NCBI GenBank assembly: GCA_963761725.1
Contig: CAVXHP010000006.1
Coordinates: 637,534-701,533 of the forward strand
Origin: an uncultured Cytophagales bacterium
GTDB lineage: Bacteria > Bacteroidota > Bacteroidia > Cytophagales > Bernardetiaceae
Direction of reading: 5' to 3'
DNA: 64,000 nucleotides
Part shown: positions 5,979 to 57,800 of the stretch, piece after piece
Layout of the letters: each line of letters begins with the position of its first letter
Position numbering within the stretch: position 1 is the stretch's first letter
Position numbers and translations under genes: made by a program
The notes under the pieces: model-generated
Database searches by the model: none
The model's input: the letters and a program-made list of their open reading frames with translations, nothing else
What the model was told of the DNA's origin: nothing

Positions 5979-6818
5979 ATGAAAACTCGTTTTACTTCTA
6001 CTACTATTTTTTCAATTTTACTTTCTGCTTTCGGATTAGCTATTCTGATTTTGGGAAGTAGTTTTTTTCCTATTTCTTTGAAAGAAAATAAAGTATATTC
6101 CACTTCCTCTACTTTTCCTTCTACTTTTTTATTTCCTTCTCATTTGCTCAAAACCCAGCAAGACACAACAGGAATGGTTTTCGTAAAAGGAAGCGTTTTC
6201 AATATGGGTAGTACTGTCTTTGAAAATGAAATGCCCATTCATGAAGTGGAATTAGATGATTTTTATATTGGAAGATATGAAGTAACAGTAAAACAGTACC
6301 GAGAATTTTGTGAAGCAACAGGAAGAGATATGCCCAAAAAACCTATGTGGGGTTGGGATGATACGCATCCAATTGTTGGTATAACTTGGGACGATGCAAG
6401 TCAGTACGCAGAATGGGTAGGTAAAAGATTACCGACAGAAGCAGAATGGGAATATGCAGCACGAGGAGGTTTGAAAACTCAAAATTATATCTATGCAGGT
6501 GCAAATTATGCCGAAGTAGTAGGGTGGTTTGAAAAAAATTCAGTAGAAATGGTACAGCCTGTTGGTCTAAAAAGACCTAATGAATTAGGAATTTATGATA
6601 TGTCTGGAAATGTTTGGGAATGGTGTTCTGACCATTATGGACGATATAGACAATTGCGTGAAAAAAATCCTAAAGGTGTCCCGCAAGGACTGAATCGTTG
6701 CGTTAGAGGAGGTAGTTGGTTTGGAAATAAAGGAAATCTACGTACAGCAAATCGCTATTACAATCCTCAAGGTTTTGGTAGTAATTTGATTGGATTTAGA
6801 GTAGTAATGGATAAATAA
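5979..6818 (+). CDS. FGE-sulfatase / formylglycine-generating enzyme (SUMF1)-like domain protein with N-terminal signal/TM segment
   Basis: Motifs GRYEVTVKQYREF, WEYAARGG, YDMSGNVWEWCSD, RCVRGGSWF are typical of the FGE-sulfatase (DUF323) fold. Confidence 0.75.
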   Translation: MKTRFTSTTIFSILLSAFGLAILILGSSFFPISLKENKVYSTSSTFPSTFLFPSHLLKTQQDTTGMVFVKGSVFNMGSTVFENEMPIHEVELDDFYIGRYEVTVKQYREFCEATGRDMPKKPMWGWDDTHPIVGITWDDASQYAEWVGKRLPTEAEWEYAARGGLKTQNYIYAGANYAEVVGWFEKNSVEMVQPVGLKRPNELGIYDMSGNVWEWCSDHYGRYRQLREKNPKGVPQGLNRCVRGGSWFGNKGNLRTANRYYNPQGFGSNLIGFRVVMDK

Positions 6819-6820
6819 TC

Positions 6821-6925
6821 AGTTATCAGTTATTAGTTATTAGTTATTAGTTATTAGTTATTAGTTATTAGTTATTAGTTATCAGTTATTAGTTATTAGT
6901 TATCAGTTATTAGTTATTAGTTATA
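6821..6925. repeat. Heptamer tandem repeat (AGTTATY) x15, starting right after the stop of 5979..6818
   Basis: Direct reading: agttatc/agttatt units with no interruption over 105 nt. Confidence 0.9.
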
Positions 6926-6983
6926 GAGTGCGAAACTGCGTTTCTCTGATAATTATTGTAAATGAAAGTTTTTTAATAAAAAA

Positions 6984-7043
6984 AATTCGTAATTCGTAAT
7001 TCGTAATTCGTAATTCGTAATTCGTAATTCGTAATTCGTAATT
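6984..7043. repeat. Heptamer tandem repeat (AATTCGT) x8, between convergent gene ends
   Basis: aattcgt repeated 8 times then a partial unit. The same heptamer recurs at 47771-47795 and degenerate copies occur at 49041 and 54455-54532. Confidence 0.9.
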
Positions 7044-7060
7044 ATAATAAAATTAACTGA

Positions 7061-9064: not shown

Positions 9065-9150
9065 TTTTTTTAAAGAGTTTAAAGAATAGGGAATGGAGAA
9101 TAGTGGTTCTATATGATTTTGGTTGCAAACTTAATCTTATATTTTTTCAA

Positions 9151-9247
9151 GTCTGTACCGAAGGTCTGACTTGAATAAAATAAGTCTTTTCAAAGTAAAA
9201 CCACTTATTTTTGATAGGTCAGACTTTCAGTACAGACCTATCAAAAA
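9151..9247. promoter_or_regulatory. Inverted repeat (20-bp arms GTCTGTACCGAAGGTCTGAC / GTCAGACTTTCAGTACAGAC, 57-bp spacer) in the divergent promoter region between the FAH gene and the GCS2-CBS gene
   Basis: Arms are reverse complements with 2 mismatches. Each arm contains a mini-hairpin (accGAAggt / actTTCagt). Confidence 0.5.
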
Positions 9248-9448: not shown

Positions 9449-11515
9449 ATGGGAGATTTAAATGTACGTATAGCAGATAATCAGCTTGACCTCAATGAAT
9501 TTACAAGGCATTTATTAAAAGATATTCAAGCTCTGGATATGATGCTCAAAAAAGATTGCTTTGATAATGAGCAGATGCATATTGGAGCAGAACAAGAAAT
9601 TTGTTTGGTCGACGATCATGGAAAACCCTCCGCTACCTGTTTGGAAGTTTTGGAAGCATTAAACAATGAAAAATTCACAACCGAATTAGCTCGTTTTAAT
9701 GTTGAATGTAACCTAGAACCTCAACCTTTTAAAGGAGATTGTTTTTCCAAATTGGAAGCCGAAACATTAGGATTATTGAAGCAATTGGAAGAAGTTACCA
9801 AAAAACATGATATTGATTATGTCTTGACAGGAATACTTCCCACCATTCGAAAATTTGACCTTACAACAGATAATATTACGCCTTTAGATAGGTATTATGC
9901 TCTCATGAATGCACTCAAAAAACTAAGAGGAAATGAATCCTATGAACTTAAAATTGAAGGAATTGATGAATTAAATACAACACAAGATACGGCACTTGTT
10001 GAGGCGTGCAACACCAGTTTTCAGGTTCATTTACAAATCAAGCCAGAGGAGTTTGTAGCCAAATATAATGTTGCTATGGCTATTTCTGCACCTATTTTGG
10101 CAGCAGCTTGTAATTCTCCGATGCTTTTTGGAAAGCGTCTTTGGAGTGAAACTCGGATTGCACTTTTCCGTCAATCGGTTGATACTCGTATTGCTTCGGA
10201 GCATTTGCGTGAACGTAGTCCTCGTGTAATGTTTGGTAATAAATGGCTTAAAGGTTCTATTTTAGATTTGTACCGTGAAGATATTATGCGTTTTAGAGTT
10301 TTGCTAACTACTGATATTGATGAAGATGCTTTAAAGATGGTGCAGGAAGACAAAACGCCTAAACTTCGTGCTTTAAATGTTCATAATTCGACGGTCTATC
10401 GTTGGAATCGTCCTTGTTATGGCATAAGCCCGAATGGAAAACCCCATTTGAGAATTGAAAATAGGATTTTACCAGCAGGTCCTACAGTTGTAGATGAGGT
10501 AGCAAATGCTGCTCTTTGGATTGGTGCCATGAATGCTTTTGAAGACACTTATCCAGATGTGAGTGAAATAATGGAGTTTGATGATGCTCGTGCTAATTTT
10601 ATGAACGTAGCTAGACATGGTTTGCGTGTTGATGTAAGGTGGGTAAATGGTAAAAAAATGAGCGTAAAGAATCTACTTTTGAAGGAAATAATTCCGATGG
10701 CAAGAAAAGGATTAGAAAAAGCAAAAGTCAGTCAGACGGATATTGATAAGTATATGGGAATTGTGGAAGCTCGTGTAAAATCCGAACAAACAGGCTCTTC
10801 TTGGATGTTACAATCCTATTCCAAACTCATCAAACAGACTACAAAAGAGGAAGTAATGACAGCCATTACCGTTGCCATTGCAGCCAAACAAAAAAGTAAT
10901 AAGCCGATTCATACATGGAAATTAGCAACCATTGAAGATATTTCAGATTGGCAACCGTCCGATTTATTAGTAGAGGAATTTATGGATACCGACCTTTTTA
11001 CTGTTACAGAGGACGATGTACCCGAATTTGCAGCCGATATTATGGACTGGCAAAAAATCCGTTATATTCCTGTGGAGTGTGGAAATGGTGTTTTGGGTGG
11101 TTTGGTTTCTTCTCGTATTTTGTTGCGTCATTTCAAATCAAATCCTAGTCAGTCAAATCAAAAAAATAATATAACAACAGTAAAAGATTTGATGATAAAA
11201 GATGTTTATACCGTTTCACCAGAAGCAAATATCCACGAAGCAATGGATTTGATGCGGAAATACAAAGTCGGTTGTTTGCCTGTGGTGGCAAATAATAATC
11301 TAGTTGGAATAATTACAGAAGCTAATTTTCTGAATATTACAGCTAGTCTTTTGAAACGAATTGCAGAGCGAAGAAGAAAACGTAAGGAAGACAATGAGAA
11401 AAGTGATAAAACTAAAGTTAGTTCCAAACCTCAAACCATAAAAGATAGAGAAATTAAGATTCAAGGAGTAGATTCTCTTCGAAATGTAATGGCTGATGGA
11501 GAAGAGGAGGAATAA
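9449..11515 (+). CDS. Glutamate--cysteine ligase family 2 (GCS2/YbdK-like carboxylate-amine ligase) domain fused to a C-terminal CBS pair and a Lys/Glu-rich tail
   Basis: N-terminal ~470 aa resembles GCS2 carboxylate-amine ligases (HIGAEQEICLVD, FQVHLQI). Two CBS modules (TVTEDDV...IRYIPV; VYTVSPEANIHEAMDLMRKYKVGCLPVVANNNLVGIITEANFL). Confidence 0.65.
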   Translation: MGDLNVRIADNQLDLNEFTRHLLKDIQALDMMLKKDCFDNEQMHIGAEQEICLVDDHGKPSATCLEVLEALNNEKFTTELARFNVECNLEPQPFKGDCFSKLEAETLGLLKQLEEVTKKHDIDYVLTGILPTIRKFDLTTDNITPLDRYYALMNALKKLRGNESYELKIEGIDELNTTQDTALVEACNTSFQVHLQIKPEEFVAKYNVAMAISAPILAAACNSPMLFGKRLWSETRIALFRQSVDTRIASEHLRERSPRVMFGNKWLKGSILDLYREDIMRFRVLLTTDIDEDALKMVQEDKTPKLRALNVHNSTVYRWNRPCYGISPNGKPHLRIENRILPAGPTVVDEVANAALWIGAMNAFEDTYPDVSEIMEFDDARANFMNVARHGLRVDVRWVNGKKMSVKNLLLKEIIPMARKGLEKAKVSQTDIDKYMGIVEARVKSEQTGSSWMLQSYSKLIKQTTKEEVMTAITVAIAAKQKSNKPIHTWKLATIEDISDWQPSDLLVEEFMDTDLFTVTEDDVPEFAADIMDWQKIRYIPVECGNGVLGGLVSSRILLRHFKSNPSQSNQKNNITTVKDLMIKDVYTVSPEANIHEAMDLMRKYKVGCLPVVANNNLVGIITEANFLNITASLLKRIAERRRKRKEDNEKSDKTKVSSKPQTIKDREIKIQGVDSLRNVMADGEEEE

Positions 11516-13363: not shown

Positions 13364-13836
13364 AGAAGTAGAATAAAGAATTTTAGATTTTCAAAAATCA
13401 ACTTTTTGTTATCAAAATGGTTTTATATAGTATTTTTGTAGCGTACACTTTAGTGTGCGAATGTATTTTGTAGCGAATGCTTTAGCTTTCGTGATTTTCA
13501 AAATAAGAAAAATTAAATTTGATATTAATTTCAAAAAAATTCTTCAAATAAAATCAAAATATTGACCTTTGTAAAAGAAGCAAATTAAATTAATAAAACG
13601 ATAGAAAATACTATTAAGAATTTTTCGTTTATGAAATAGCCAACCATTACAAAATCAAAATTAATTAGTTCAAATGGGGAAAAATAAATCTGTTATTTTT
13701 TTTAACTCTTTTCCTCAACAGTTTCTTTGATAATTATTTAGATTATCTTCCAAAAAAATACTATTCTAACTTATAAATTTATATACACTATATAGGGTTG
13801 TTTTTTACGCTCTTTTACCTAAAAAAATATCTTTTT

Positions 13837-14838: not shown

Positions 14839-14964
14839 GAATTGAAATTTGTTTGAGCGTTGAGGCTTGAACTAATCAATAGATTTTTATATAGGAAAGC
14901 CGAAATTCAATAGTTTTGAATTTCGGTTTTTTGTGTAATATATTTTAATTTAGTTCTTTTATTT

Positions 14965-15244
14965 CAATATGAGTGTCATTAATTCAATTTAAAATAGCTC
15001 TTCATTAGCTATAGAGTAGCATAACCTTTAGCTTCGGTGACTCGCTGCTCTTCGGGTGTAGAAAGGAATAGAAAATTAATTTTAAAAGCTACAGAGTAGC
15101 GTAACCTTGTTTTTAATTCTAATTTTCTCGCAAATCACAGAGTTTCGCTACTCTGTAGCTCTAATAAAGCTGTTCATAATGTTCTACCAAGGTTACGTTG
15201 CTCTGCAACTGAAAACCAAATACTTAAAAATGACACTCATATTG
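14965..15244. mobile_element. MITE-like element copy 1 (280 bp): 16-bp perfect TIRs CAATATGAGTGTCATT/AATGACACTCATATTG, TSD TTATTT
   Basis: Perfect TIRs. Flanking 6-bp direct duplication (14959-14964 and 15245-15250). Internal complementary modules AGCTACAGAGTAGCGTAACC / CGCTACTCTGTAGCT. Near-identical to copy 3. Confidence 0.8.
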
Positions 15245-15265
15245 TTATTTATAAACTCTTTTTTT

Positions 15266-16387: not shown

Positions 16388-16479
16388 TTTTTCTATTAAA
16401 AAACATTATATCAAAAAAAACAGAATTATTTTTTCTTGTCTTTCTGAATAACTATACTCATTTTTGTATGGATTAACGT

Positions 16480-16543
16480 AGCTGACACTTTCCAAGTGTC
16501 AGAATGTGATATGTATTTTATTGACACTTGGAAAGTGTCGGCT
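16480..16543. promoter_or_regulatory. Inverted repeat with internally palindromic 23-bp arms (AGCTGACACTTTCCAAGTGTCAG ... TTGACACTTGGAAAGTGTCGGCT) immediately upstream of the next gene
   Basis: Each arm is a 9-bp stem hairpin with a 3-nt loop (TCC vs GGA). Arms are reverse complements separated by an 18-nt AT-rich spacer. Confidence 0.45.
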
Positions 16544-16559
16544 ACTTTTGAATTATTTT

Positions 16560-18209
16560 ATGACAAAATTGAAGATGCGTCTTTTACGCTTTCGTGTGTG
16601 GTTTCAAAATCAATGGAAAAGCCGTTCTCAAAAGGAAAAATATACGGTCGGAATGGCTGGACTTTTGGGTGTTTTGCTAATTTTTGCAGTCGCTTTTGTG
16701 ATTTGGAATACGAATAGAGAAGCCTCTGTTTGGGAACTTGTGCCTAATGATGCCATTTTGGTTTTGGAAACTACGGAAGCACAGCGAATGAGAGAAAAAA
16801 TTGATTCCCTTCCCTTTTGGCAGCCTTTCAAAAATTTGCCTTATCTTCAATCCTATCACTCACGCAAAACGGTTTTGGATTCTGTTGGTAGAGATTCTTT
16901 AGATATTATGAATTATCTAAAAGGCAGGAAAATATATGTTTCATTGCATCAAACTTCACGTACAAGTGCTGATATTATGTTTTTTGTTCCGATGTCTTTG
17001 CAATCAAGGATTATAAATAGTCTATCCAAAAAATTACAAAAAGATATTCCTTTTACACATTCAGAGCGTCTCTACAATGAAATTACGGTTCACGAGCTAA
17101 AATATGAATATGAAAAGACCGATAAAGATGGAAATATAGAAGCTAGAAAAAACTCAAATCGCAAAAACGAAACGGAAAGCGTAATTTTTACTTATGTAAT
17201 CTACAAAAACTTTTTTATAGGAAGTTATACACCTTTTTTGGTAGAAGATGCTGTTCGTAAAATAGCAAATAATGAAGAGACGCCTTTTTTTAAAGAAAAT
17301 AAAGACCTTCTCAAACTCACAAAAATAGAAGATGACGATGCAAACCTATATGTTTCGGCTTCACAAATTCCAAAACTTTTTTCCCTTTTTACGGAGGAAG
17401 AAAACACAGCTCTACTTTCTAGTTTTGGTAATTGGGCAAAATCAGCTATGCTTGATGTTTCCTTGAAGGAACATTTACTTTTATTAAATGGCTATGTTTT
17501 GACGCAAGAAGAAGGAACAGAAAGAGATTATTTGTCTATTTTAGAAACTCAAAAATTGATTGATTTTATTGATTTACAGCAATTTATCCCTCAAGAAACC
17601 GCTCTTTTGTATAGAATTGGACTTTCAGAACCCGAAAAGTATTTTAATGAATTAGAAAAATATAGAAAAGAATATTTACCAAGACAGATTGAAGCAAAGG
17701 AAACTTTGATTGATAATTATAGCTTCTCACCTACTCGTTTTTTGGATAATCTAGGAAATGAAATTGCTGTTGCTGTCTTGGAAATGCCAGAAAACCGAAA
17801 AAACCCAGAAAAATTAGCCTTCCTAAAGATAAAATCAGAAGACGGACAAACCGAAAAATACGAACAAAAAGCAGTCGCCTTATTAAAACAACTTGCCGAA
17901 AATTCATTGGTACAAGTAAAAAGTGAAGATGGTAAAGAAAATGAAACCAAACCATTGACAGAAATCTATGAAGAACTTCCAATTACACGTATTGAAGTAG
18001 CAGATTTTCCCAAAAAGATGTTTGGAGAAGGTTTTAGTGGATTTTCGCAGTCTTATTACACTGTTTTGGAAAGTAAATATATTGTGATTGGAAGTAGTTT
18101 TCAGGCTATTCAAAAATTGATTGATGATTATAAAAATGAACGTGTTTGGGGAAAACTAGTCAGGCAAAGACAGTTTTTCGAACAAATCGGAACTCGTTCG
18201 AACAGTTAG
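16560..18209 (+). CDS. Hypothetical membrane-anchored protein (single N-terminal TM, large extracytoplasmic domain)
   Basis: The ORF-track start (GTG at 16506) lies within the palindrome, so the ATG at 16560 is preferred. TM YTVGMAGLLGVLLIFAVAFVIWN. No recognisable catalytic motifs. Confidence 0.45.
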   Translation: MTKLKMRLLRFRVWFQNQWKSRSQKEKYTVGMAGLLGVLLIFAVAFVIWNTNREASVWELVPNDAILVLETTEAQRMREKIDSLPFWQPFKNLPYLQSYHSRKTVLDSVGRDSLDIMNYLKGRKIYVSLHQTSRTSADIMFFVPMSLQSRIINSLSKKLQKDIPFTHSERLYNEITVHELKYEYEKTDKDGNIEARKNSNRKNETESVIFTYVIYKNFFIGSYTPFLVEDAVRKIANNEETPFFKENKDLLKLTKIEDDDANLYVSASQIPKLFSLFTEEENTALLSSFGNWAKSAMLDVSLKEHLLLLNGYVLTQEEGTERDYLSILETQKLIDFIDLQQFIPQETALLYRIGLSEPEKYFNELEKYRKEYLPRQIEAKETLIDNYSFSPTRFLDNLGNEIAVAVLEMPENRKNPEKLAFLKIKSEDGQTEKYEQKAVALLKQLAENSLVQVKSEDGKENETKPLTEIYEELPITRIEVADFPKKMFGEGFSGFSQSYYTVLESKYIVIGSSFQAIQKLIDDYKNERVWGKLVRQRQFFEQIGTRSNS

Positions 18210-18222
18210 TGTAATTGTAGAT

Positions 18223-19503
18223 TTGCCTCGCTCTTGGAATTGGCTTATGACAAATATTTCTCCAGAATGGCAAAAGACGTTTGAAGCCTATAAATACGAT
18301 CTTTTGAAAGTAGAGTTTTTGGCGTGGCAAGCAGAAGGAGAAGAAAAGCGTTTTGCTAGTTCGATTATTTTCCAACAACAAAAAACAGCTGAATTAGTAG
18401 CTCAAAGCAAGAAAGAAGAAGCCAAAACGATTTTTAAAAGTAGATTAGAAAGTCCTCCCTATTTGGTTAGAAATCATTTGGATAGAAGTCAGGAAGTGTT
18501 GGTTCAAGATGAAAAAGATATGTTGTATTTGGTTTCGAAGGAAGGAAAAATACTTTGGAATTATTATCTAAATGGAACAATGCGACCACAAGTTTATCAA
18601 ATTGATGCTTATAAAAATGGAAAATTGCAGTATTTGATTGCTACGCCTACAAAGGTTTATTTGATTGACCGTTTGGGAAGAGCAGTTTCTGGTTTTCCGA
18701 TTTGGTTTCCAGAAAACACATTTATTACGCATCTTTCAGTCATTGATTATGACAATTCAAAGAATTATAGAATTAGTGTAGCTACTAGTCAGGGCAATGT
18801 TTATTTATACGACAAAACGGGTCAGAGTTTACCAGGCTGGCAACCTCGTAAGGTTGGCATGGCTCTTTCTGCTCCTTTAGAACACGTTCGGGCAGGAAAT
18901 AGAGATGCCATGATTGCGATTGAACAAAACGGAATTGTCAATTTACTAAAACGAAATTCTCAAAGTTATTCCAATTTTCCACTCAATTTTAGTTCGGATA
19001 TTACCAATGATTTTCATGTAGATTATGGCAACACACTTTCCACAACAGAAGTAAGTATGCTGACCGAAGCTGGCGAACTAATTCGTTTTAATTTGGAGGG
19101 AAAAATAGTAGATAGAAAATTCTTTGAGAGAGGAGAACAAGGTGCAATTTTTACGCTTGCAGCCGACAAACAGCGTGAACAAAATTTTGTAATTGCACGA
19201 CAAGACAGCAAAAAACTAACGCTTTATTCGTCGGAAGAAGAACTCTTGTTTTCTAAAAATTATGACAATGAAGGAACAAAACTAATTCAATATTTCAATT
19301 TTGGAGCAAGTATAGAAGTCATTGCTGTTACAGATATGCACGCACAAAAAACCTATCTCTATTACACTAACGGAACAATGATAGGAGGAAAACCAATACA
19401 AAGTAACACAACGATTGCACTTTTTTATTCGGAACAAACGAGCCTTTTTACGCTTTACAGAACACTTGACAATGAATGTCAGAAACTGGTTTTTGGGAGG
19501 TAA
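18223..19503 (+). CDS. Hypothetical protein with beta-propeller-like (PQQ/WD-like) repeats; possibly the continuation of the preceding gene via a frameshift
   Basis: Track start is TTG, 13 nt after the stop of the previous ORF in another frame (alternative ATG at 18247). Recurrent beta-strand repeats (LYLVSKEGKILWNY, VYLIDRLGRAVSGFP, GNVYLYDKTGQSLPGW). Confidence 0.4.
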   Translation: MPRSWNWLMTNISPEWQKTFEAYKYDLLKVEFLAWQAEGEEKRFASSIIFQQQKTAELVAQSKKEEAKTIFKSRLESPPYLVRNHLDRSQEVLVQDEKDMLYLVSKEGKILWNYYLNGTMRPQVYQIDAYKNGKLQYLIATPTKVYLIDRLGRAVSGFPIWFPENTFITHLSVIDYDNSKNYRISVATSQGNVYLYDKTGQSLPGWQPRKVGMALSAPLEHVRAGNRDAMIAIEQNGIVNLLKRNSQSYSNFPLNFSSDITNDFHVDYGNTLSTTEVSMLTEAGELIRFNLEGKIVDRKFFERGEQGAIFTLAADKQREQNFVIARQDSKKLTLYSSEEELLFSKNYDNEGTKLIQYFNFGASIEVIAVTDMHAQKTYLYYTNGTMIGGKPIQSNTTIALFYSEQTSLFTLYRTLDNECQKLVFGR

Positions 19504-25403: not shown

Positions 25404-25430
25404 AGTACAATTAAAATCTATTTGAAATAT

Positions 25431-25671
25431 CAATATGAGTGTCATTTTGAGTCATTGACTTTTAGTTGCAGCCGCAACGTAACCTTGGTAGAAGCTCAAA
25501 AGCGTATTTCAATAGAGCTACAGAGTAGCGAAACTTGCAATTGGGCAATTAAGAATAAAGTTACGCTACGTTGTAGCTTTTCAAATCAATTTTATTTTTG
25601 TTCTACCAAGGTAAAGCTACTCTGTAGCTAATAAATGCCTATTTTGATTTCTGCCAATGACACTCATATTG
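25431..25671. mobile_element. MITE-like element copy 2 (241 bp, inverted orientation relative to copy 1), TSD AAATAT
   Basis: Same perfect 16-bp TIRs. Flanking direct repeat AAATAT (25425-25430 / 25672-25677). Internal AGCTACAGAGTAGCG and GGTTACG..GCAACT modules. Confidence 0.8.
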
Positions 25672-25929
25672 AAATATATCAGAATTAAAATAAAGTATTT
25701 TTAGTAAAATAATTAAGTGAAAGTAAGCAAAAACTATCGTTTATGGGAATTTTTTAGTTTAATTTATTAAAAATACTTTTCAAAATTGAAAATCCTAAAA
25801 TCTTTTTGTATCTTTTAGTTTATTTATTCTGTGTCGCTCGTAGGGATACAAGCAACGGTAGAGCAAGTTTTTGTTCTAACAAATTATCTTTTTTTAAAAT
25901 AAAACGGTTGTCTGACAATTTTTGTGGAA

Positions 25930-26001
25930 GTCGTTGGTGAGACACCAACAACGGAAAAAAAGAGTCATAAATACCTCGCCATTGTCGGTGTCTCACCGAC
26001 G
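25930..26001. repeat. REP-like palindromic pair (GTCGTTGGTGAGACACCAACAACGG and CGCCATTGTCGGTGTCTCACCGACG)
   Basis: Two hairpins with stems GTTGGTG/CACCAAC and GTCGGTG/CACCGAC. Related copies at 53301-53332 and in the element at 40735-40918. Confidence 0.55.
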
Positions 26002-26019
26002 ATTTTACCATCACCACTT

Positions 26020-31735: not shown

Positions 31736-31867
31736 TTATAAAAATACCTTCCAAAAAGCCGTCAAAACAAGCATTCCCAACGAAAAAGGAAGTAAATATT
31801 TTTCCAAACCTAAAACTCTTATTTTCGTTTTATTCAAAAGTCAAGATTATTCTGTAACTTTATAAAA

Positions 31868-32119: not shown

Positions 32120-32582
32120 TTTACTTTGAAACATTTTGTAACTGATGCTAATGTTCTTTTTAGTGGAAAAATTAGTGTAAACGAATAAATAGTACGACTT
32201 TTTGTTTATATACAATTTTAGCTCCCGAGTAGCTCACTTTGTTAGAACATTCAGCGAAGCAAATATGAAGAAATGATATTTATCAAAAACAGAATTGGTA
32301 ACCTAAAAGTTTATGAGATTATACACTTCGTTTAATCAAAAAGTTTGCAGCTTGTTGTTCTAAATCTTATCAATCTCTAATCAAAGCTATTATAAAGGTT
32401 AATTTATGCTACAAGGTGTAGATGAACCAAAGATACGTCCTTATTTAGCTTTATGCGATTAACTAGAAATTGAGTGAACATACATCAAGATGAAAAATTA
32501 TCTATTCATTTGATACAAGAAGGTTTTGATAAAGTAATTTCTTTGACAAACTTTTTGAGCGAAATATAAGCTCGTCATCTGG

Positions 32583-32660
32583 TGCAAGGTTTTACCTTGT
32601 ACCTACTATTTCAGCAAGCATATGCTTGAGAAATTATAAGCACAAGATAGAATCTTGCGC
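32583..32660. repeat. REP-like palindromic element (CAAGGTTTTACCTTG; GCAAGCATATGCTTG; CAAGATAGAATCTTG), family shared with 36727-36807
   Basis: Three adjacent perfect or near-perfect palindromes. About 45 nt is near-identical, in inverted orientation, to 36727-36773. Confidence 0.55.
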
Positions 32661-32675: not shown

Positions 32676-33791
32676 TTAACACAAAAACACCTTCCAAAAA
32701 GCCGTCAAAACAAGCATTGCAAGCGAAAAAGGCAACAAGTATTTCCAACACATGCTCATCAGTTGGTCGACTCTTAATCTTGGAAAACTCCATCGAATCC
32801 ACATCTGAATCAGCATAAAAATAATAGTTTTGCTCATTAGCCAAAAGAAAGACCACAGATAACTAGAAAAATGATTTAATTCTCCACTTGTATAAGTAGC
32901 TAATTCAAAACTACCTATGTTTGGAAAAGGTGTATTCCAACCTCCAAAAAACAAAATACTGGTCAGAAGTCCTATCAAAAGCATCATTCCATATTCTGCA
33001 AGCATCAAAAAAGCCCAACGCATTCCTGAATACTCCGTTTGAAAACCTGCTACGAGTTCCGATTCTGCTTCGGGAATATCAAAAGGCGTTCGGTTAGCTT
33101 GTGCAAGTCCTGAAATAAAGAAAATCAAGAAGACAATAAAGAAAAAAGGCATCGAAATAATATTCCAAGACAAAATTCCTCCAATATTCTGCGTTTCGAT
33201 GTTTAAAAATGAAAGTCCAAATAAATACGTCGTTTGTTCTGCAAAAATTCCTTGTGCTTTGCTTATCTCCTGCAAATCCAGAGAACCATTCCAAACCACG
33301 ACACACAAAATAGAAAGTCCTAGAGGCAATTCATACGAAACCATTTGAGCCAAAGAACGAACAGCACCGTACAAAGAAAACTTATTGGAAGAAGCCCAGC
33401 CAGCCATCAAAATCCCGATAACATCTAAGGCTACAATTCCGAGCCAAATCAGAATACCTAAAGGCATCTTGGTTTCTGTATTTGCAGAAAAAGGAATAAT
33501 CGCAAACCCAGCAAAAACAGCCATAAAAACCAAAACAGGAGCAAATTTGAACAAAAAGGTATTAGAAGAGGAGGGAATAATGTCTTCTTTGAATAATAGT
33601 TTTACAACATCAGCAAAGGTTTGTAAAAGTCCATATTTTCCTGTCTCGGTAGGACCAATACGATCTTGAATGAAAGCCGAAATTTTTCGTTCTACATAAA
33701 CACCAACAAGTGTATTAAATAAAATCAAAGAAAGTGTAAGAAATATTAGGAGAATAATAGGCATACTATTATATTTGGTAGTAAAATTCAC
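32676..33791 (-). CDS. nuoH: NADH-quinone oxidoreductase subunit H / ND1-family membrane subunit, apparently solitary
   Basis: VERKISAFIQDRIGP...GLLQTFADVVKLLFKEDIIP matches the NuoH/ND1 signature. ~8 TM helices. Start probably at M10 (33764). Confidence 0.7.
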   Translation of the reverse strand: MNFTTKYNSMPIILLIFLTLSLILFNTLVGVYVERKISAFIQDRIGPTETGKYGLLQTFADVVKLLFKEDIIPSSSNTFLFKFAPVLVFMAVFAGFAIIPFSANTETKMPLGILIWLGIVALDVIGILMAGWASSNKFSLYGAVRSLAQMVSYELPLGLSILCVVVWNGSLDLQEISKAQGIFAEQTTYLFGLSFLNIETQNIGGILSWNIISMPFFFIVFLIFFISGLAQANRTPFDIPEAESELVAGFQTEYSGMRWAFLMLAEYGMMLLIGLLTSILFFGGWNTPFPNIGSFELATYTSGELNHFSSYLWSFFWLMSKTIIFMLIQMWIRWSFPRLRVDQLMSMCWKYLLPFSLAMLVLTAFWKVFLC

Positions 33792-35859: not shown

Positions 35860-35881
35860 CGCACACTAAAGTGTACGCTAC
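35860..35881. repeat. 22-bp palindromic element CGCACACTAAAGTGTACGCTAC (reverse complement of the copy at 13437-13458)
   Basis: Exact 22/22 match to the reverse complement of GTAGCGTACACTTTAGTGTGCG at 13437-13458. Confidence 0.6.
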
Positions 35882-36693: not shown

Positions 36694-36726
36694 TTTTTTA
36701 TAAAATCATTTTCCTTCGCAAGATTC

Positions 36727-36807
36727 TATCTTGTGCTTGTAAATTCGCAAGCATATGCTTGCAGAAAAAGAGTGTCCAAGCAATATGCTTGAACAAGAGA
36801 TACATAT
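36727..36807. repeat. REP-like palindromic element between the LytS-like kinase and LytTR regulator genes (GCAAGATTCTATCTTG; GCAAGCATATGCTTGC; CAAGCAATATGCTTG)
   Basis: Perfect 16-bp palindrome GCAAGCATATGCTTGC plus two flanking palindromes. Same family as 32583-32660. Confidence 0.55.
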
Positions 36808-37883: not shown

Positions 37884-38259
37884 TTTTTAATTTTTTAGGG
37901 TAGGGAAAAGACACATCTTTTGCTCTATATGTACTTTCAAAATTGCACAACATGTTTAGGAAAAGGCGTACCTTTTCCCTACAAAATGCAAATTATTACG
38001 TTTTATTTCTATCAAAACTAATCTTTACACAATCAGAAAATAAATAAAATCCGATAAGGTGCAATATAGTCCGATGAGCTGCAAATCTATTTCAGTCTGT
38101 TCATTCAACGGCTTATTTTACCACTTATCAGAAAGGAAGTGCAACAGAATTTTTTAAAGTAGATATTTGTTGTATAGATTTTCAATTGGTCTAACCAAAA
38201 ACCTATTTGACAAATACCTTTAATCCGAACAAATTAATTACTCAATAAACTCTTTCACT

Positions 38260-40734: not shown

Positions 40735-40918
40735 GCCGTTGTTGGTCTTTAACTTCGGCTTGCCGTTGTGATTACCAACAACAGACATACACGAACAATT
40801 TATGAACTCACCACCAAAACTAAAAAGTTAAATGCGAAAAAAGTGTTTATCTTAGCTTACACATGTTTGAGTTGTTGGTCATCGTAACGGCAAGCCGAAA
40901 CTAAAGACCAACAACGGC
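40735..40918. repeat. ~184-bp element bounded by ~47-bp imperfect inverted repeats (GCCGTTGTTGGTCTTTAACTTCGGCTTGCCGTTGTGATTACCAACAAC ... GTTGTTGGTCATCGTAACGGCAAGCCGAAACTAAAGACCAACAACGGC)
   Basis: Long arms are reverse complements with a few mismatches. Shares the CCGTTGTTGGT/ACCAACAACGG core with the hairpins at 25930 and 53301. Confidence 0.6.
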
Positions 40919-46500: not shown

Positions 46501-47681
46501 TCGGTGTTTTGAACGAAAAAACAAGTTTGATAGAATTTAGAGGTTATTCTGTTGAAGGACAACCACTTAATTATGATTTTAACGCAGCAAGAGATAAGAC
46601 ATTACTTTCTGCTTGGGCAATCCGAAATCAGAAAGAAGTAAAGATAGGAGATTTGCAAAGCGAATATGCAAAATATGTAGCTGGAGAAGTAGTAGCAGTA
46701 GGAACTACAATTCCAAAATCGCTTATTTATTTACCTTTAGCTATCAAAAATCGTCCTGTTGGTGTTCTGACTGTACAATCTTTGGAAAAGGGTGCGTACT
46801 CTGACCGTCATTTGACATTACTAAAAGGTCTTGCTTCTTACGTTTCGATTGCACTAGATAATATTCAAAATTATTCAGAATTAGGACAAGCCAAGAATAC
46901 AATTCAGGAAAGTAGTGTTCGTATTATGGACAGTCTGCGTTATGCTCAAACCATTCAGCAAGCCATTTTGCCTACCGATGATATGCTTCAAAGTAGTTTT
47001 GATGATTCTTTCATGATTTTCAGACCAAAAGATGTAGTTTCTGGAGATTTTTATTGGCTCAGAGAAATAGAAGGACGTACTTTTATTGCTGCTGTTGATT
47101 GTACAGGACACGGAGTTCCAGGAGCTTTTATGTCTATGATTGGAAGTAGATTGCTCAATGAAATTATTAATGAAGCAAATATACTTGAACCTGCCAAAAT
47201 TTTAGATGAATTACATATTCGTTTGAAAAATGCACTAAAGCAAGAAGAATCAAGAAATGACGACGGTATGGATGTTTCTTTGTGTAGAATTGATGCACTA
47301 GAAGAAGATACATTAGAACGAGAAATTGTTTTTGCAGGAGCAAAACGTCATGCAGTTTGGGTAAGTAGAGGAGAATCTCATATTTTGAAAGGAGATAAAA
47401 AGTCTATTGGAGGTTGGAGAAAGAGTAAAAAACGTCCGTTTATACAACTTCAAATGACTGCAAAAAAAGGAGATGCTCTTTATTTATTTACAGATGGGAT
47501 AACAGACCAGAATAATATCGCAGGTGCAAAATACGGCTCAAAACGTTTGCATCAATTATTAAATCAAAGTTCAGATTTTGATATGGGTGAGCAAAAAACT
47601 ATTTTGGAAGAAGATTTAGACCGCCATCAGGGAAATCAAAAGCAAAGAGATGATATTACTCTTATTGGAATCAGACTGTAA
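43503..47681 (+). CDS. Large sensor protein: two-component-regulator beta-propeller repeats + Y_Y_Y domain, TM, coiled coil, GAF, C-terminal PP2C/SpoIIE Ser/Thr phosphatase
   Basis: Multiple Reg_prop repeats (W.GT..GL..YD). Y_Y_Y-like region (YMYKLEGFDNEWHYT...YILRVKAANSDGYWNE). TM after it. GAF. PP2C motifs GDFYWL, VDCTGHGVPGAFMSMIG, DGITDQ. Confidence 0.75.
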   Translation: MKSLSSKFLSSTHSIILPKQISLFFEGIFSLSFFALSFIGYLAILLVFFFGNTVSLFAQKTNSIQLQEQQNQQTQAIMGLRFKGFDSDDGLAQNNVTAILQDTRGFVWIGTGDGLSKYDGYEFKNYTHIVEDSSSLSAGMVTALHQDAQGILWVGTTNGINKYDFTKDRFIQYRLKESRISNLNTRTVRSIFQDSNETLWIGTENGIKIYDKLNNSIEYSQEYNGLLEVPVLALYEDNDSTFWVGTENGLYKLDRQRRAFVPVFVDGTQLTQFPVYTFFEDRQQNLWVGTQEGAFKLDRKRKKAKKYSSTSFPTTLSNDIVKTISQDKKGDIWIGTYGGGINRLITTTGQVATIRQNEAEQYSLSDDIVQTIYHDRSGILWIGTYDGLNKYDEEKEVFYNYPIPLQYVARNLQKEVWAVEEDYLGNTWIGTEEGLYVYMPKPESTQWELTKIGDKLGLKNKHIVSLLEDKKGTLWIGTLQDGLYKYNLKSLGVGGNSTTEAIPFDLTNLANKKAEINLQLADNSIWTMMQDTYNDIWIGTNNGLYTIKDKTEKVNKYTERDGSGLSDNSIWALLQDRYGVVWVGTSNGLNRFRKQSRDFITYNQANNDSGGLSNGYIVTLFEDETGVLWAGTHGGGLNRFHKEADNFTHYTEKDGLPDGVIYAIEQDNSRHLWISTNRGLSRFNIDTQVFNNYDVNDGLPSNRFNHNAVEKTKNGELIFGTVYGITVFHPDSIKDNNYIPPVYLTNLKVLGRDIRAGDGTGILTRNIAQTDMITLPHGQNSFAVDFVALNYRLPKKTVYMYKLEGFDNEWHYTTYRNHTASYTNLPEGREYILRVKAANSDGYWNESGATLRIYINPPYWEAIWFRIALAMLLIGAGASFWFWRNGEMQKQKNRLSMEVHQRTNELEEEKEKLQTAYNEISNQSRQILDMNAVLKQKQTEVMIQRDDLSKQRNEIENSYQNVRVLSDIGQQVTATLDFDQMVGVLYQHVNSLMNAPGFGIGVLNEKTSLIEFRGYSVEGQPLNYDFNAARDKTLLSAWAIRNQKEVKIGDLQSEYAKYVAGEVVAVGTTIPKSLIYLPLAIKNRPVGVLTVQSLEKGAYSDRHLTLLKGLASYVSIALDNIQNYSELGQAKNTIQESSVRIMDSLRYAQTIQQAILPTDDMLQSSFDDSFMIFRPKDVVSGDFYWLREIEGRTFIAAVDCTGHGVPGAFMSMIGSRLLNEIINEANILEPAKILDELHIRLKNALKQEESRNDDGMDVSLCRIDALEEDTLEREIVFAGAKRHAVWVSRGESHILKGDKKSIGGWRKSKKRPFIQLQMTAKKGDALYLFTDGITDQNNIAGAKYGSKRLHQLLNQSSDFDMGEQKTILEEDLDRHQGNQKQRDDITLIGIRL

Positions 47682-47683
47682 TT

Positions 47684-47739
47684 GGAGAATGAGAGTTGGA
47701 GAATGGGAATTGGAGAATGGATAATGGAGAATGGAGAAT
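47684..47739. repeat. Heptamer tandem repeat (GGAGAAT) x8 immediately after the stop codon
   Basis: ggagaat gagagtt ggagaat gggaatt ggagaat ggataat ggagaat ggagaat. Confidence 0.85.
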
Positions 47740-47770
47740 TATCATAACTAGAATTTTTATAACAAGAAAA

Positions 47771-47795
47771 AATTCGTAATTCGTAATTCGTAATT
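47771..47795. repeat. Heptamer tandem repeat (AATTCGT) x3 abutting the stop of the GNAT gene
   Basis: Same heptamer as 6984-7043. Confidence 0.85.
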
Positions 47796-48280: not shown

Positions 48281-48408
48281 AATAAATTGAGAAAAAATAA
48301 GTAAAAAAGATACTTTTTAAAATTAGGTTCTGTAATTTTGCAGCCACAAAAATAATTTATTTAATTTACAAAGGACAACGTTTTACTAAAAAATATCTTC
48401 AAATCATT

Positions 48409-48688
48409 CAATATGAGTGTCATTAATTCAATTCAAAATAGCTCTTCATTAGCTACAGAGTAGCATAACCTTTAGCTTCGGTGACTCGCTGCTCTTCGGG
48501 TGTAGAAAGGAATAAAAAATTAATTTTAAAAGCTACAGAGTAGCGTAACCTTGTTTTTAATTTTAATTTTCTCGCAAATCACAGAGTTTCGCTACTCTGT
48601 AGCTCTAATAAAGCTGTTTGTAACGTTCTACCAAGGTTACGTTGCTCTGCAACTGAAAATCAAATACTTAAAAATGACACTCATATTG
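48409..48688. mobile_element. MITE-like element copy 3 (280 bp), TSD AATCATT
   Basis: Perfect TIRs. 7-bp flanking duplication (48402-48408 / 48689-48695). Differs from copy 1 by a few SNPs. Confidence 0.8.
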
Positions 48689-48747
48689 AATCATTAATGA
48701 CTTAATTAAAAGATTTAATAGACAAGTTATATTTTAAGTTAATTTTA

Positions 48748-48999
48748 CAATATGAGTGTCATTGGCGAAAATCGAAACAAGTATTTGTTAGCTACAGAGT
48801 AGCGTAACCTTTGTAGAAAAAGAATAAGAATTGATTTGAAAAGCTACAGCGTAGCGTAACCTTATTTTTAATTCTAATTTCATGAAAGTTGCAAGGTTTC
48901 GCTACGCTGTAGCTCTAATGAAGGTTATTATTTACTGTTCTACCAAGGTTACGTTGCGATGCAACTAAAACTCAATACTTAGAAATGACACTCATATTG
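48748..48999. mobile_element. MITE-like element copy 4 (252 bp), TSD ATTTTA, 59 bp downstream of copy 3
   Basis: Perfect TIRs. Flanking ATTTTA (48742-48747 / 49000-49005). Internal hairpin carries a compensatory pair change (CAGCGTAGCG/CGCTACGCTG vs CAGAGTAGCG/CGCTACTCTG in copy 1). Confidence 0.8.
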
Positions 49000-49086
49000 A
49001 TTTTAATTCGTAGTTTTTAATTGACTTCGTCGCTTTGACAGGTCGTAATTCGTAATTATTTAATTCATTCATAAATTCATAAAATT

Positions 49087-52425: not shown

Positions 52426-52473
52426 AGCAATAAATTTTATACTTCTAACTTTATTCAACTGGTTACATTACTG

Positions 52474-53367
52474 CTAACTGATAACTGATAACTGAAAAGC
52501 CATTTCTTGCTGAATTTGCTGTGCTGCTTTGGCTGCCATTTCTGCAAAATCTCTGTCTTTGCTGGCATAGATAATCTGACGAGAAGAGTTTATCAGAAGT
52601 CCACATTCTTTTGTAAGTCCTGCTTTTGATACTTCTGCTAAATTTCCTCCTTGAGCTCCAACTCCTGGAACCAACAAAAAATGATTGGGTATTATTTTGC
52701 GAATATTCTCTATGTATTCTGCCTTTGTTGCACCCACAACATACATTAGATTTTCTTCTGTCCCCCATTCTTTACTTTTTTCTAAAACTTCTTCATATAC
52801 TTTTTTTCCATTTTTGAGTTCTAACATTTCAAAATCTTCTGCACCCGAATTTGAAGTAAGAGCTAACAGAATTGTCCATTTATTTTTTATTTCTAAAAAA
52901 GGTTTTACAGAGTCTTCTCCCATATAAGGTGCAACTGTAATGGCATCACAATTCAAGTTTTCAAGAAATGCTTTTGCATATTGAGTAGAAGTATTTCCAA
53001 TATCACCTCGTTTTGCATCAGCAATAATAAAGACATTGTGAGGTAAGTATTCAATTGTTTTTTGCAGACTTTCCCACCCTTTTGTTCCTAGAGCTTCGTA
53101 AAAAGCAGTGTTTAGTTTGTAAGAAACAGCATATTTTTCTGTCGCATCAATAATGCGTTTATTAAACTCAAAAATAGGGTCTTTTGCATTTAATAAATGA
53201 AACGGAATTTTTTTAATATCACTATCCAAACCTACACAAAGGTAAGATTCTTTAGCTTTTATTTGAGAGATGAGTTTAGTGCGATTCACTTTTAATATAT
53301 GTTGTGTCGTTGGTGGAGACACCAACAACGGCGAAGAGAAATGAGTTTTGAAACCAATTTTATACAA
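52474..53367 (-). CDS. pyrF: Orotidine 5'-phosphate decarboxylase (type 2)
   Basis: [35 protein letters not shown] motifs. The N-terminal ~25 codons of the track ORF are encoded by a REP-like hairpin, so the true start is probably further 3'. The C-terminal codons overlap the heptamer repeat. Confidence 0.85.
53301..53332. repeat. REP-like hairpin GTTGTGTCGTTGGTGGAGACACCAACAACGGC
   Basis: Near-identical to 25930-25954, and shares the CCGTTGTTGGT/ACCAACAACGG core with the 40735-40918 element. Confidence 0.55.
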
Positions 53368-53444
53368 AAATAGTATTTTTAAAACTATTTTTTAGTTGAA
53401 AGCTAAAGCATTCGGTACATTTTCTTACGCTAAAGTGTAAGCTA

Positions 53445-54449
53445 CTAATATTGCTGTAATGTATTCTCCAATTCTGCTTGTATTTGTTTGGCTAATGGAT
53501 TTGGACTAAGCACACGAACCGACGAACCATATCCCAAAATCATCATTTTGAGTTCGTAATTTACAATCAAATGCAAACGAATTCTATATTCATTATCATC
53601 TTCTACCAAAACTTCCTGTGTGTGATGAAGAGGTTGAGATTTGATATACTTTCCTTGAAAAACATCAAAGCTCAAAACTACATCTTCTGGTTTTTGATTC
53701 AGAGCCGAAACACCAATACAGTAATGATAAAATTCTTCTGGATTGAATTTGGCTTGTTCGGGAGTAATGAAAAGGGACTCATCTGATGGTTCTATGTCCA
53801 TTATTCTATCCAAACCAAAGGTTCTGACTTCATTGTATTTTCTTACCCACCCAATTAAATACCACATATTACGGTATTCTTTTAATAGATAAGGATGAAT
53901 ATTGTAAGGTTTTGTATGTGGTTCATTGTGTTTTTGATAGAATATTTTGATTACATTTTGCTCTGAAATATGATAAATCAAATCCTTTAACTGGTGCGTT
54001 CCTTTTCCTTTATAGATCGATTGTTCGACTTGAATAATTCGCTGTACATTTTTTTGGATTTCCGAACTTTTAGCAATTTCCATTCCGTCCAAAACTTTAT
54101 CTACTGCACCAGAAAACTCATTGAAAATAGGTAATTCTCTAAATTCTCCCAAAAGAGATTCTACAAAAGCCATAGCAAGCTGCTCATCATCAGAAAGATT
54201 GACAGACAAAAATTTGTACTTTGCATCTGAATACGAATAGCCTTTCATTTTTTTATTGTAATCAATCGGTGCATCAAATTCATCACGCATAGCAGCCAAA
54301 TCTTTTTCGATGGTAGAAGCTGAAGAAACACCAAAACGCTCTCTACACGCCTCCAACAATTCATCTTTAGTAGGAAAAGGTTTGAATTTGCTGCGTAACA
54401 TTTGATCGATGAGCAAATAGCGAAAAAAAGCGAGTTTGGTAGCTGCCAT
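53445..54449 (-). CDS. WYL-domain transcriptional regulator (N-terminal HTH + WYL domain + C-terminal WCX-like region)
   Basis: N-terminal HTH pattern FFRYLLIDQMLRS...FPTKDELLEACRERFG. Signature WYL motif in NMWYLIGWVRKYNEVRTFGLDRI. Confidence 0.75.
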   Translation of the reverse strand: MAATKLAFFRYLLIDQMLRSKFKPFPTKDELLEACRERFGVSSASTIEKDLAAMRDEFDAPIDYNKKMKGYSYSDAKYKFLSVNLSDDEQLAMAFVESLLGEFRELPIFNEFSGAVDKVLDGMEIAKSSEIQKNVQRIIQVEQSIYKGKGTHQLKDLIYHISEQNVIKIFYQKHNEPHTKPYNIHPYLLKEYRNMWYLIGWVRKYNEVRTFGLDRIMDIEPSDESLFITPEQAKFNPEEFYHYCIGVSALNQKPEDVVLSFDVFQGKYIKSQPLHHTQEVLVEDDNEYRIRLHLIVNYELKMMILGYGSSVRVLSPNPLAKQIQAELENTLQQY

Positions 54450-57379: not shown

Positions 57380-57593
57380 TATAACGTGAACTCGGTATTA
57401 TGATTTAGTTCATTTGTGTATTTCCCCATTATCAACGTCTATTTTTTCAAAATAGACGATTGCTAAGGGAGTTTTGTGTTTTTTTACCTTAGCAATCGTC
57501 TGTTATCGCAGATAACAAGACGTTGATAATGGTGAAAAAATACAAAACGGTTACTAATAAGAACTATTTTAATACCGAGTTCACGTTAGTATA
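57380..57593. repeat. Nested palindromic element (214 bp): outer 20-bp IR TATAACGTGAACTCGGTATT / AATACCGAGTTCACGTTAGTATA enclosing perfect 14-bp IR pairs (CCATTATCAACGTC/GACGTTGATAATGG; GACGATTGCTAAGG/CCTTAGCAATCGTC) and the central palindrome TTATCGCAGATAA
   Basis: All arms read directly and verified as reverse complements. Confidence 0.65.
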
Positions 57594-57721
57594 TACACTA
57601 AAAAAACTCAACCAAAAACTTCAAGCAGAAATTAAGGAGGTTACAACTCTGACAGTTAGAAACTGTCAGCTATGTGACACAATGAAGGCATCACTTTTGC
57701 GTTTTGCTAACAAAATGTATC

Positions 57722-57777
57722 ACAGACTTCCCAGTCTGTGCAAAAATATAGTATTTCTAACAGACTAGGAAGTCTGT
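57722..57777. promoter_or_regulatory. Inverted repeat with internally palindromic arms (ACAGACTTCCCAGTCTGT ... ACAGACTAGGAAGTCTGT), 24 nt upstream of the C1 peptidase start
   Basis: Each arm is a 7-bp stem hairpin with a 4-nt loop (TCCC / AGGA). 20-nt AT-rich spacer. Same architecture as 16480-16543 and 9151-9247. Confidence 0.45.
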
Positions 57778-57800
57778 TTTACTTATAAATTCTATCTCAA

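Follow-up and report, generated by a model that had tools for sequence, protein, structure and literature searches.

Paired hairpins that recur close to start codons in an uncultured Cytophagales bacterium are ordinary dispersed genomic repeats and not regulator binding sites. We consider it very probable that they are GTAG-tagged REP/REPIN-like doublets of several families, and that the copy at 16478-16545 (locus 2) is transcribed in the 5' leader of the gene that starts at 16560. The observations behind this reading are multi-copy dispersal, compensatory changes within the hairpins, a fixed size, no target duplication, gain and loss of units, and presence/absence of copies. The window, that is, the whole 64,000-nt stretch of DNA analysed here, has a G+C content of 31% and encodes proteins that group with those of the genus Bernardetia (previously Flexibacter), and its Bernardetia-like Cytophagales lineage carries several coexisting REP families.

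In the mechanism that we propose, the basic unit of ~25 nt consists of an unpaired GTAG and a 7-9-bp hairpin, and two such units are joined head to head with the tags outside (HH dimer/REPIN). By analogy with known systems, a RAYT-type HUH/Y1 transposase may recognise the GTAG tag plus hairpin as single-stranded DNA, and may spread and maintain the units. The locus-2 copy, lying between a -33/-7 promoter-like block and the start codon, would be transcribed in the leader, where its RNA could fold either as two hairpins or as one 24-bp hairpin ending 14 nt before the ATG.

Anatomy and predicted fold of the focal doublet

Locus 2 spans 68 bp and contains the unit GTAG + a 7-9-bp stem + a TCC loop twice, in inverted orientation, with the GTAG tags on the outer sides and a spacer of 18-20 nt between the arms. 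Its parts and the adjoining start codon are as follows:

16478-16502, plus strand: REP unit A, with GTAG at 16478-16481, a 9-bp stem CTGACACTT/AAGTGTCAG and the loop TCC
16503-16520, no strand assigned: AT-rich spacer, AATGTGATATGTATTTTA
16521-16545, minus strand: inverted REP unit B, reading GTAG-CC-GACACTT-TCC-AAGTGTC on the minus strand, with CTAC at 16542-16545 on the plus strand
16560-16562, plus strand: ATG of the downstream gene, 14 nt past the CTAC tag, in agreement with public gene calls

Read on the plus strand, unit B is TT-GACACTT-GGA-AAGTGTC-GG-CTAC, the reverse complement of unit A. The inverted repeat that the two units make up is 24 nt long, has 1 mismatch and extends on the outer side through GTAGC/GCTAC. 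The stems measure 9 and 7 bp (the second also 9 if two G-T pairs are counted) and enclose 3-nt loops. Within its mostly heterodimeric family this copy is unusually symmetric, being nearly a homodimer, and can therefore fold into one 24-bp hairpin; this single hairpin is the predicted RNA fold (-43.3 kcal/mol, z = -10.3), and the corresponding DNA fold is predicted at -25.1 kcal/mol. The window gave 0 Rfam matches at gathering thresholds, the hits around the focal element being sub-threshold generic hairpins (<=34 bits vs >=70 required), and it contains no tRNA or tmRNA.

Other loci in the window

We counted 4 strict paired palindromes in the window, where 100 dinucleotide shuffles gave 0.04 on average and never more than 1, and the locus-2 arm pattern with <=3 mismatches allowed gave 3 window matches vs 0.18 expected. 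The recurrent paired-hairpin design that the initial annotation had described at three loci is thus real, and it extends to two further loci, 25930-26003 and 37900-37982. All window copies lie between ORFs, and those outside locus 2 are the following:

9149-9239, no strand assigned: locus 1, a ~91-nt element in the FAH leader, with arms 9149-9172 and 9216-9239 and loops GAA/TTC
13438-13491, plus strand: tandem pair of GTAG-tagged units, GTAGCGTACACTTTAGTGTGCG and GTAGCGAATGCTTTAGCTTTCG, with tags at 13438 and 13470
25930-26003, no strand assigned: doublet of a fourth family, GTCGTTGGTG-AGA-CACCAACAACGG and ATTGTCGGTG-TCT-CACCGACGAT
35860-35881, minus strand: GTAG-tagged unit identical in sequence to one of the 13438-13491 pair
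37900-37982, no strand assigned: doublet of two GTAG-GGAAAAG units placed head to head (GTAG at 37900, CTAC at 37979-37982)
53424-53445, minus strand: single GTAG-tagged unit, GTAG-CTTACAC-TTTA-GCGTAAG
57649-57673, minus strand: single degenerate unit of the locus-2 superfamily, ATAG-CTGACAGTT-TCT-AACTGTCAG
57717-57782, no strand assigned: locus 3, doublet of a second REP family, GTAT-CACAGACT-TCCC-AGTCTGTG, an 18-nt spacer and AACAGACT-AGGA-AGTCTGTT-TTAC

Perfect stems had been claimed for every arm, which fails for locus 1, where each arm is an interrupted 5+3-bp hairpin. Locus 3 is built like locus 2, with 8-bp stems in its arms at 57721-57740 and 57759-57778, and its loops, TCCC/AGGA, are complementary at 3/4 positions. 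The two arms of locus 1 differ at four positions that fall into two pairs, compensatory inside each arm, and the element is missing from all three orthologous FAH upstream regions compared (L127-L129). The locus-3 doublet, of which an orthologous copy is present in L086, ends 18 nt 5' of the ATG at 57801. In the same L086, the orthologue of the degenerate unit at 57649-57673 shows a compensatory C-G to G-C swap, giving GACACTT/AAGTGTC. Unrelated MITE-like repeats also occur in the window.

The arms of the fourth-family doublet read GTTGGTG-AGA-CACCAAC and GTCGGTG-TCT-CACCGAC, and this doublet ends 16 nt 5' of the ATG at 26020. In B. litoralis and MNP-M8 this position is taken by another palindrome, itself a doublet, of ACCC-TAA-GGGT units. 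The doublet at 37900-37982 likewise stands 16 nt from an ATG, that of a minus-strand gene (37883). At 53424-53445 the first G of the tag doubles as the third base of the TAG that ends the gene at 53445-54449. At locus 2 and at 37900-37982 both arms carry the GTAG tag, as do the singletons at 13438, 13470, 35860 and 53424, and the tags of locus 3 are GTAT/GTAA. At loci 1 and 4 no clear tag was seen, which makes their REP membership weaker.

Copy number and organisation of the repeat families

We scanned the GTDB collection, with one genome per species, for the arm pattern GTAGCNNACACTTNNNAAGTGT, which matches unit A of locus 2 exactly. The scan returned at least 81 stretches, at least 66 of them in five Bernardetia-lineage genomes (counted by record titles). 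As lower bounds, the stretches per genome numbered ~22 in MFD03250.bin.2.105, ~20 in Flexibacter sp. CG_4_10, ~11 in ERR2094166_bin.133, 7 in CTOTU7301 and 5 in OM2101. Among the matches listed, ~15 fell in other taxa, every one a singleton; B. litoralis carries a match too, beyond the matches listed.

The scanned stretches contain 103 strict units of the locus-2 family, with stems of 8-9 bp. Their outer stem pairs are TG/CA (51), CG/CG (28), AA/TT (5), AG/CT (3) and others; at the inner variable pair, 80 units have C-G and 21-23 have G-C. This inner pair is complementary in 103/103 units, a result not built into the scan, since the search pattern permitted non-complementary inner pairs. In the direction from the tag, 60 units have the loop TCC, 19 TTC and 12 TCT (91/103 together). 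The family is organised as 29 head-to-head doublets and 43 singletons, the doublets having the modal length of 63-69 bp in 18/30 cases and spacers that resemble the focal one (AAATAyAgTAtTT...). Flanking direct repeats indicative of a target-site duplication were seen for 1/30 doublets at 2 nt and for 0/30 at >=3 nt. An invertible promoter switch was rejected, the spacer being only ~20 nt and the element multi-copy.

The other families were counted in a 722-kb sample of lineage sequence that is biased toward the neighbourhoods of the locus-2 family. In this sample we found 9 copies of ACAGACT-N4-AGTCTGT units (the locus-3 family, tag GTAT), 7-11 copies of the GTCGTTGGTG...CACCAACAACGG family, single copies of which lie at 53307-53332 and in L054, L056, L119 and L126, and 9 copies of a GTAG-GGAAAAGG-CTTG-CCTTTTCC-CTAC family. 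Copies of the locus-1 element (~100 nt), whole or as an arm, were present in L064, L046 and L111.

Conserved structure

In an alignment of 20 doublets, 97.6% of the cells of the local hairpins were paired and 18 were compensatory, a value reached by 0/500 shuffles; the structural constraint that had been proposed from the window is borne out for the single hairpins. Pairing between the arms, by contrast, was present in 87.5% of cells, with 0 compensatory changes and a score under that of the shuffles, and the C/G stem position was mismatched between the arms in 13-14/20 doublets. From these uncompensated mismatches it follows that the locus-2 family consists mostly of heterodimers, a composition on record for many REP families. 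A single long hairpin or cruciform was accordingly rejected as the conserved structure of the family, although the focal copy can form it. We also rejected a loop-loop ("kissing") interaction, for which the complementary loops had seemed to speak: since the loop has a set orientation with respect to the tag, any two inverted units will show complementary loops.

Orthologous loci and turnover

B. litoralis DSM 6794 and the MAG ERR2094166 (L131) have the locus-2 doublet at the corresponding position, and each of the three stem substitutions among these orthologues leads to a G-T (G-U) pair on the sense strand. Only one unit, GTAG-CTGACACT-AA-AGTGTCAG...GCTAC, is left of locus 2 in MNP-M8 and ABR2-2B, and in OM2101 and L130 the doublet is missing from the orthologous leader. 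Elsewhere, L053 is distinguished from L112 by a clean indel of a single REP unit. Among the compared species we found no clean empty site for a whole doublet, and many copies occupy orthologous positions in several species, so that the units may not have moved recently.

These data bear on whether the doublets could be cut-and-paste MITEs with terminal inverted repeats, moved by a DDE transposase. Their small size (63-69 bp), inverted-repeat bounds of ~24 nt and multi-copy state would suit such elements, and the window holds unrelated repeats of MITE-like appearance. However, no doublet in 30 has a target-site duplication of >=3 nt, lone units occur at 43 places and are gained or lost as units, and every arm is itself a tagged, REP-like hairpin. 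We therefore regard MITEs as a very improbable explanation.

Position relative to genes

Position statistics were obtained for the 24 doublets that lie far enough from the ends of their stretch, with gene boundaries set by a simple ORF rule that was identical for controls; some sampled loci are mutually orthologous, and 20/22 loci remain after dropping near-identical gene starts. In 16/24 doublets an ORF-opening ATG lies <=30 nt from the outer tag, vs 20% for random intergenic placement (p=1e-6), and the distance from CTAC to the ATG is usually 13-15 nt. Doublets of three other families lie 17-28 nt from start codons. The placement next to gene starts noted in the initial annotation is borne out. 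A stop codon was <=10 nt from 29% of doublets vs 12% of controls. Singletons were enriched only after stop codons (28% vs 9%), and the majority of sampled copies adjoin ORF ends. Upstream of the tag, 7/20 independent loci have a TTTG-ending box resembling the Bacteroidota -7 element whose end is 5-12 nt away, and in most loci such a box lies <=36 nt from the tag. Among the non-Watson-Crick stem pairs, read on the presumed sense strand, 15 were G-U and 7 A-C, a bias that is not significant (p=0.07).

The candidate promoter and the 5' leader of the 16560 gene

Upstream of locus 2 lies one further feature:

16436-16466, plus strand: candidate Bacteroidota-type promoter, TTG-N20-CATTTTTG, ending 11 nt 5' of the GTAG tag

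This block is kept in five syntenic genomes (the window, L042, L131, L130 and L045) and persists even in both doublet-less genomes, OM2101 and L130. On the strength of this conservation and of the Bacteroidota -33/-7 consensus, we take the block to be a putative promoter. Because the conserved box ends 11 nt before GTAG, the locus-2 doublet probably makes up most of the 5' leader, if this candidate promoter is used, and "RNA leader element", one of the roles first suggested for the repeats, is a fair description of the location of 16478-16545. A sigma-70-type promoter scan, which does not cover Bacteroidota promoters, returned no sites around the focal element. In the window, arm B also sits between a TTG and a TACTTTTG box 19 nt apart; as B. 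litoralis and L131 have lost the TTG or the final G of this junction, TTG-N19-TACTTTTG (16521-16550), we rejected it as the main promoter.

The placement of arm B within that junction, together with arms that form 17-18-bp palindromes, could recall operators, each arm binding a dimeric regulator, with two dimers per promoter and paralogues differing by locus, which was the regulator family favoured as an alternative at the outset. The evidence is nevertheless set against it on several counts. The arms are dispersed repeats with dozens of copies at unrelated genes, some directly 3' of stop codons; the units bear an asymmetric GTAG tag and an oriented loop; and their stems covary by compensation, which is not expected from base-specific protein contact. 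Moreover, the junction motif is not retained in B. litoralis and L131, the doublet is missing from some orthologous leaders, and the flanking genes that were scanned against Pfam lack a DNA-binding regulator domain. We consider operators an extremely improbable account of the repeats. For the leader structure of locus 2 itself, an effect on mRNA stability or processing is the most likely consequence that we infer, and action as a protein operator is unlikely.

The hairpin of locus 2 might also be an intrinsic terminator or attenuator before the 16560 gene, formed by a hairpin and then a T-run. A consensus scan flags 16521-16541 plus CTACTTTTGA as terminator-like (1 site vs 0.1 expected), the 24-bp hairpin abuts TTTTG, and B. 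litoralis and L131 retain the T-rich tail. In the family, however, the gene-side flank is mostly A-rich with no T-run (agaata, ataaaa, ataata, ctaaaa and the like), and the stems are AT-rich, with just 3 G-C pairs. The gene would also be silenced by a strong terminator at this point, 14 nt from the ATG and past the sole conserved promoter-like block, and we judge termination or attenuation quite improbable.

It is possible, if on balance unlikely, that the doublets are domesticated 5'-leader RNA modules of repeat origin, with one or two hairpins ~14 nt 5' of the start kept by selection; the roles envisaged are mRNA 5'-end protection, an RNase III site, or an unstructured start region in an organism that lacks Shine-Dalgarno sequences. 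The clustering of doublets of the focal and other families at short distances from start codons, the TTTG-ending box near the tag, the very stable predicted fold, the excess of G-U over A-C mismatches and the exclusively G-U substitutions among the locus-2 orthologues all point in this direction. Set against them are the mixed orientation of the arm types relative to the gene, the dispensability of the doublet at the orthologous leader in OM2101 and L130, and the lack of significance of the G-U bias; short leaders by themselves would also place tolerated insertions near the ATG. A selected leader function is compatible with a repeat origin.

A broader form of this proposal, which we hold to be distinctly unlikely, is that REP doublets serve as a standard 5'-leader module in Bernardetia-type Bacteroidota lacking Shine-Dalgarno-led initiation, with several unrelated palindrome families sharing the slot, as at 25930-26003. 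Recruited in this way, the doublets would reach from about the transcription start to ~14 nt ahead of the start codon and might govern the stability of the mRNA 5' end or shield the initiation region. Alternatively, promoter open complexes, with their single-stranded DNA, could be the target of insertion.

Search for a transposase

The preferred reading as REP/REPIN-like doublets would involve a RAYT-type transposase, whose gene in a REPIN-RAYT system belongs to the same genome and usually has REPs on its flanks. Using tblastn with approximate E. coli RAYT and IS608 TnpA queries, together with HUH...Y motif scans, we detected no Y1/RAYT (PF01797) or IS200-like gene in 722 kb of lineage sequence, a small sample of each genome. 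In L065, the one place where two doublets lie near enough to each other to flank a gene, they enclose an 82-aa ORF that has an rpsB-like gene on one side and a tsf-like gene on the other. A search for literature on Bernardetia or Flexibacter litoralis repeats yielded nothing relevant.

Comparison with known repeats

Among small inverted-repeat elements of leaders, the Neisseria Correia elements are 100-150 bp long, duplicate a TA target and have arms that are not tagged hairpins; they are often co-transcribed in 5' leaders and fold into hairpins cleavable by RNase III. The Bernardetia doublets resemble them as small inverted-repeat elements that probably lie in leaders and, unlike them, lack target duplication.

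The closest likeness is to the GTAG REPs, such as Pseudomonas GTAG-1 and Stenotrophomonas SMAG, which share with the present units the unpaired 5' GTAG, the 7-9-bp stem and the 3-nt loop. GTAG REPs and their HH dimers carry the unpaired tetranucleotide, GT[AG]G, at one end of the unit and have stems of 6-13 bp and loops of 2-4 nt, with partners 20-100 bp apart (Di Nocera et al. 2013, PMC3733652). The partners fold separately or as one large stem-loop, and subfamilies are distinguished by complementary stem changes (PMC3733652). Common to both sets are such complementary-change subfamilies, G-T pairs in the stems, outside tags and a semi-conserved spacer (PMC3733652), and also the prevalence of heterodimers, a tag that can supply a TAG stop, and multiple families per genome. 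The stems of the Bernardetia lineage are AT-rich, unlike those of the surveyed GTAG REPs. Classical REPs occur mainly 3' of genes, at variable distance to the next gene (PMC3733652), whereas the Bernardetia doublets cluster <=30 nt 5' of start codons, a difference that leaves room for a host function. Classical REPs exceed 100 copies; the present repeats number tens per genome as a lower bound.

REPINs and their associated RAYT (Bertels and Rainey 2011; Nunvar 2010, PMC2817692; Ton-Hoang 2012, PMC3333891) offer a second comparison, the shared trait being an inverted doublet of narrow size. As here, a REPIN doublet can fold into one long hairpin, shows no target-site duplication and is accompanied by singletons that resemble doublet remnants. 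Unlike in REPINs, arm-to-arm pairing in the Bernardetia doublets is unconserved and usually interrupted, and no RAYT gene was present in the 722 kb sampled. For annotation, these findings suggest masking such hairpin pairs as REP-type repeats in genomes of Bernardetia and related Cytophagales, and not taking them for regulator motifs or riboswitch-like leaders. The unusual point is the preference of the doublets for positions 15-30 nt before start codons; if this bias is functional or reflects targeted insertion, it would be a case of repeats shaping 5' leaders in non-Shine-Dalgarno bacteria.

"Double-foot" REPs have been linked to TnpA_REP subclass 2.4 of Cyanobacteria and Bacteroidetes (Quentin et al. 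2018, PMC6006769). The GTAG-GGAAAAGG-CTTG-CCTTTTCC-CTAC units, seen as the right unit of 37900-37982 and in L053 and L114, fit the definition of this form exactly by having GTAG at one end and CTAC at the opposite one, and the single-unit version of locus 2 in MNP-M8 and ABR2-2B resembles the central deletion of a doublet proposed for it, whereas the focal element at 16478-16545 is a full doublet. In the 2013 survey, GTAG repeats were reported from Proteobacteria, Cyanobacteria, Chloroflexi and the PVC group, and Bacteroidetes were represented by CGTC repeats only (PMC3733652); the present families extend the range of GTAG-tagged REPs, double-foot forms included, to a Bacteroidota lineage.

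Gene starts in related sequences

The REP doublet at 25930-26003 in the window, which ends 16 nt before the ATG at 26020, has a different palindrome in its place in two relatives:

L042 19363-19396 (B. litoralis), replacement palindrome orthologous to window 25930-26003
L043 18859-18891 (MNP-M8), replacement palindrome orthologous to window 25930-26003

In both, the palindrome (AGACCCTAAGGGTTTT..AAAACCCTTAGGGTCT) is a doublet of ACCC-TAA-GGGT units that lies 20-27 nt 5' of the ATG of the same gene, and this family comprises 10 units within the sampled sequence. We also compared the window from 9065 with L002 1-995, which belongs to another strain of this metagenome, and found 98.6% identity through the FAH gene. 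L002 departs from the window 6 nt upstream of the FAH ATG, where it enters a gene pair encoding DUF433 and PIN-domain proteins, and this divergence indicates a rearrangement breakpoint at the gene start.

Other repeats in the window

A repeat of ~282 nt is present in four window copies:

14958-15252, ~282-nt repeat
25425-25677, ~282-nt repeat, reverse
48402-48696, ~282-nt repeat
48741-49007, ~282-nt repeat

This repeat looks like a MITE because AATATGAGTGTCATT forms its terminal inverted repeat and its interior holds AGCTACAGAGTAGCG...CGCTACTCTGTAGCT repeats. The syntenic stretch L130 has another copy, 5' of its 16560-gene orthologue, and a further one was found in L114. Further inverted and direct repeats were also detected:

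31740-31801 / 32683-32744, 62-nt direct repeat, 87% identical
32578-32659 / 36717-36798, 82-nt inverted repeat, 80% complementary, ~4 kb between the arms
40735-40918, inverted repeat, 48-nt arms (90% complementary), 88-nt spacer
57382-57590, nested inverted repeat of ~209 nt, just upstream of the REP doublet at 57717-57782

The arms of the 40735-40918 repeat include GCCGTTGTTGGTC, which is related to the family of the 25930-26003 doublet, while those of the 57382-57590 repeat contain CGTC...GACG hairpins (57436-57458 and 57497-57522); copies of the former occur in L092 and L058, and of the latter in L105 and L076. The 82-nt inverted repeat and the nearby 62-nt direct repeat may jointly form the borders of a composite element. 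Tandem arrays were found at four intergenic sites. (TTATYAG)n and (ATTCGTA)n have a 7-nt unit and a third type has a 14-nt unit; the ATTCGTA array occurs at two window loci:

6797-6936, tandem array
6978-7047, tandem array
47680-47795, tandem array
52467-52498, tandem array

Split gene calls, and REP units at a gene end or possibly inside genes

Two window ORFs in different frames (16560-18209 and 18223-19503) jointly match what every relative encodes as a single protein (975-1004 aa). The split reflects a frameshift or else a misassembly of the source MAG. The sampled stretch L001 differs from the window at ~0.15% of positions; GCS2-CBS, one ORF in the window (9449-11515), is called as two genes in L001.

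REP units of the type that precedes the 16560 gene were seen in two species (L062 1033-1056 and L077 5941-5964) with flanks resembling coding sequence. No ORF boundary was found within 400 nt of these units, which may represent an intragenic REP. At 53442-53447 in the window (TAGTAG), a REP unit on the minus strand has its GTAG tag overlapping the TAG that terminates the gene at 53445-54449, resembling the GTAG REPs described as supplying stop codons.
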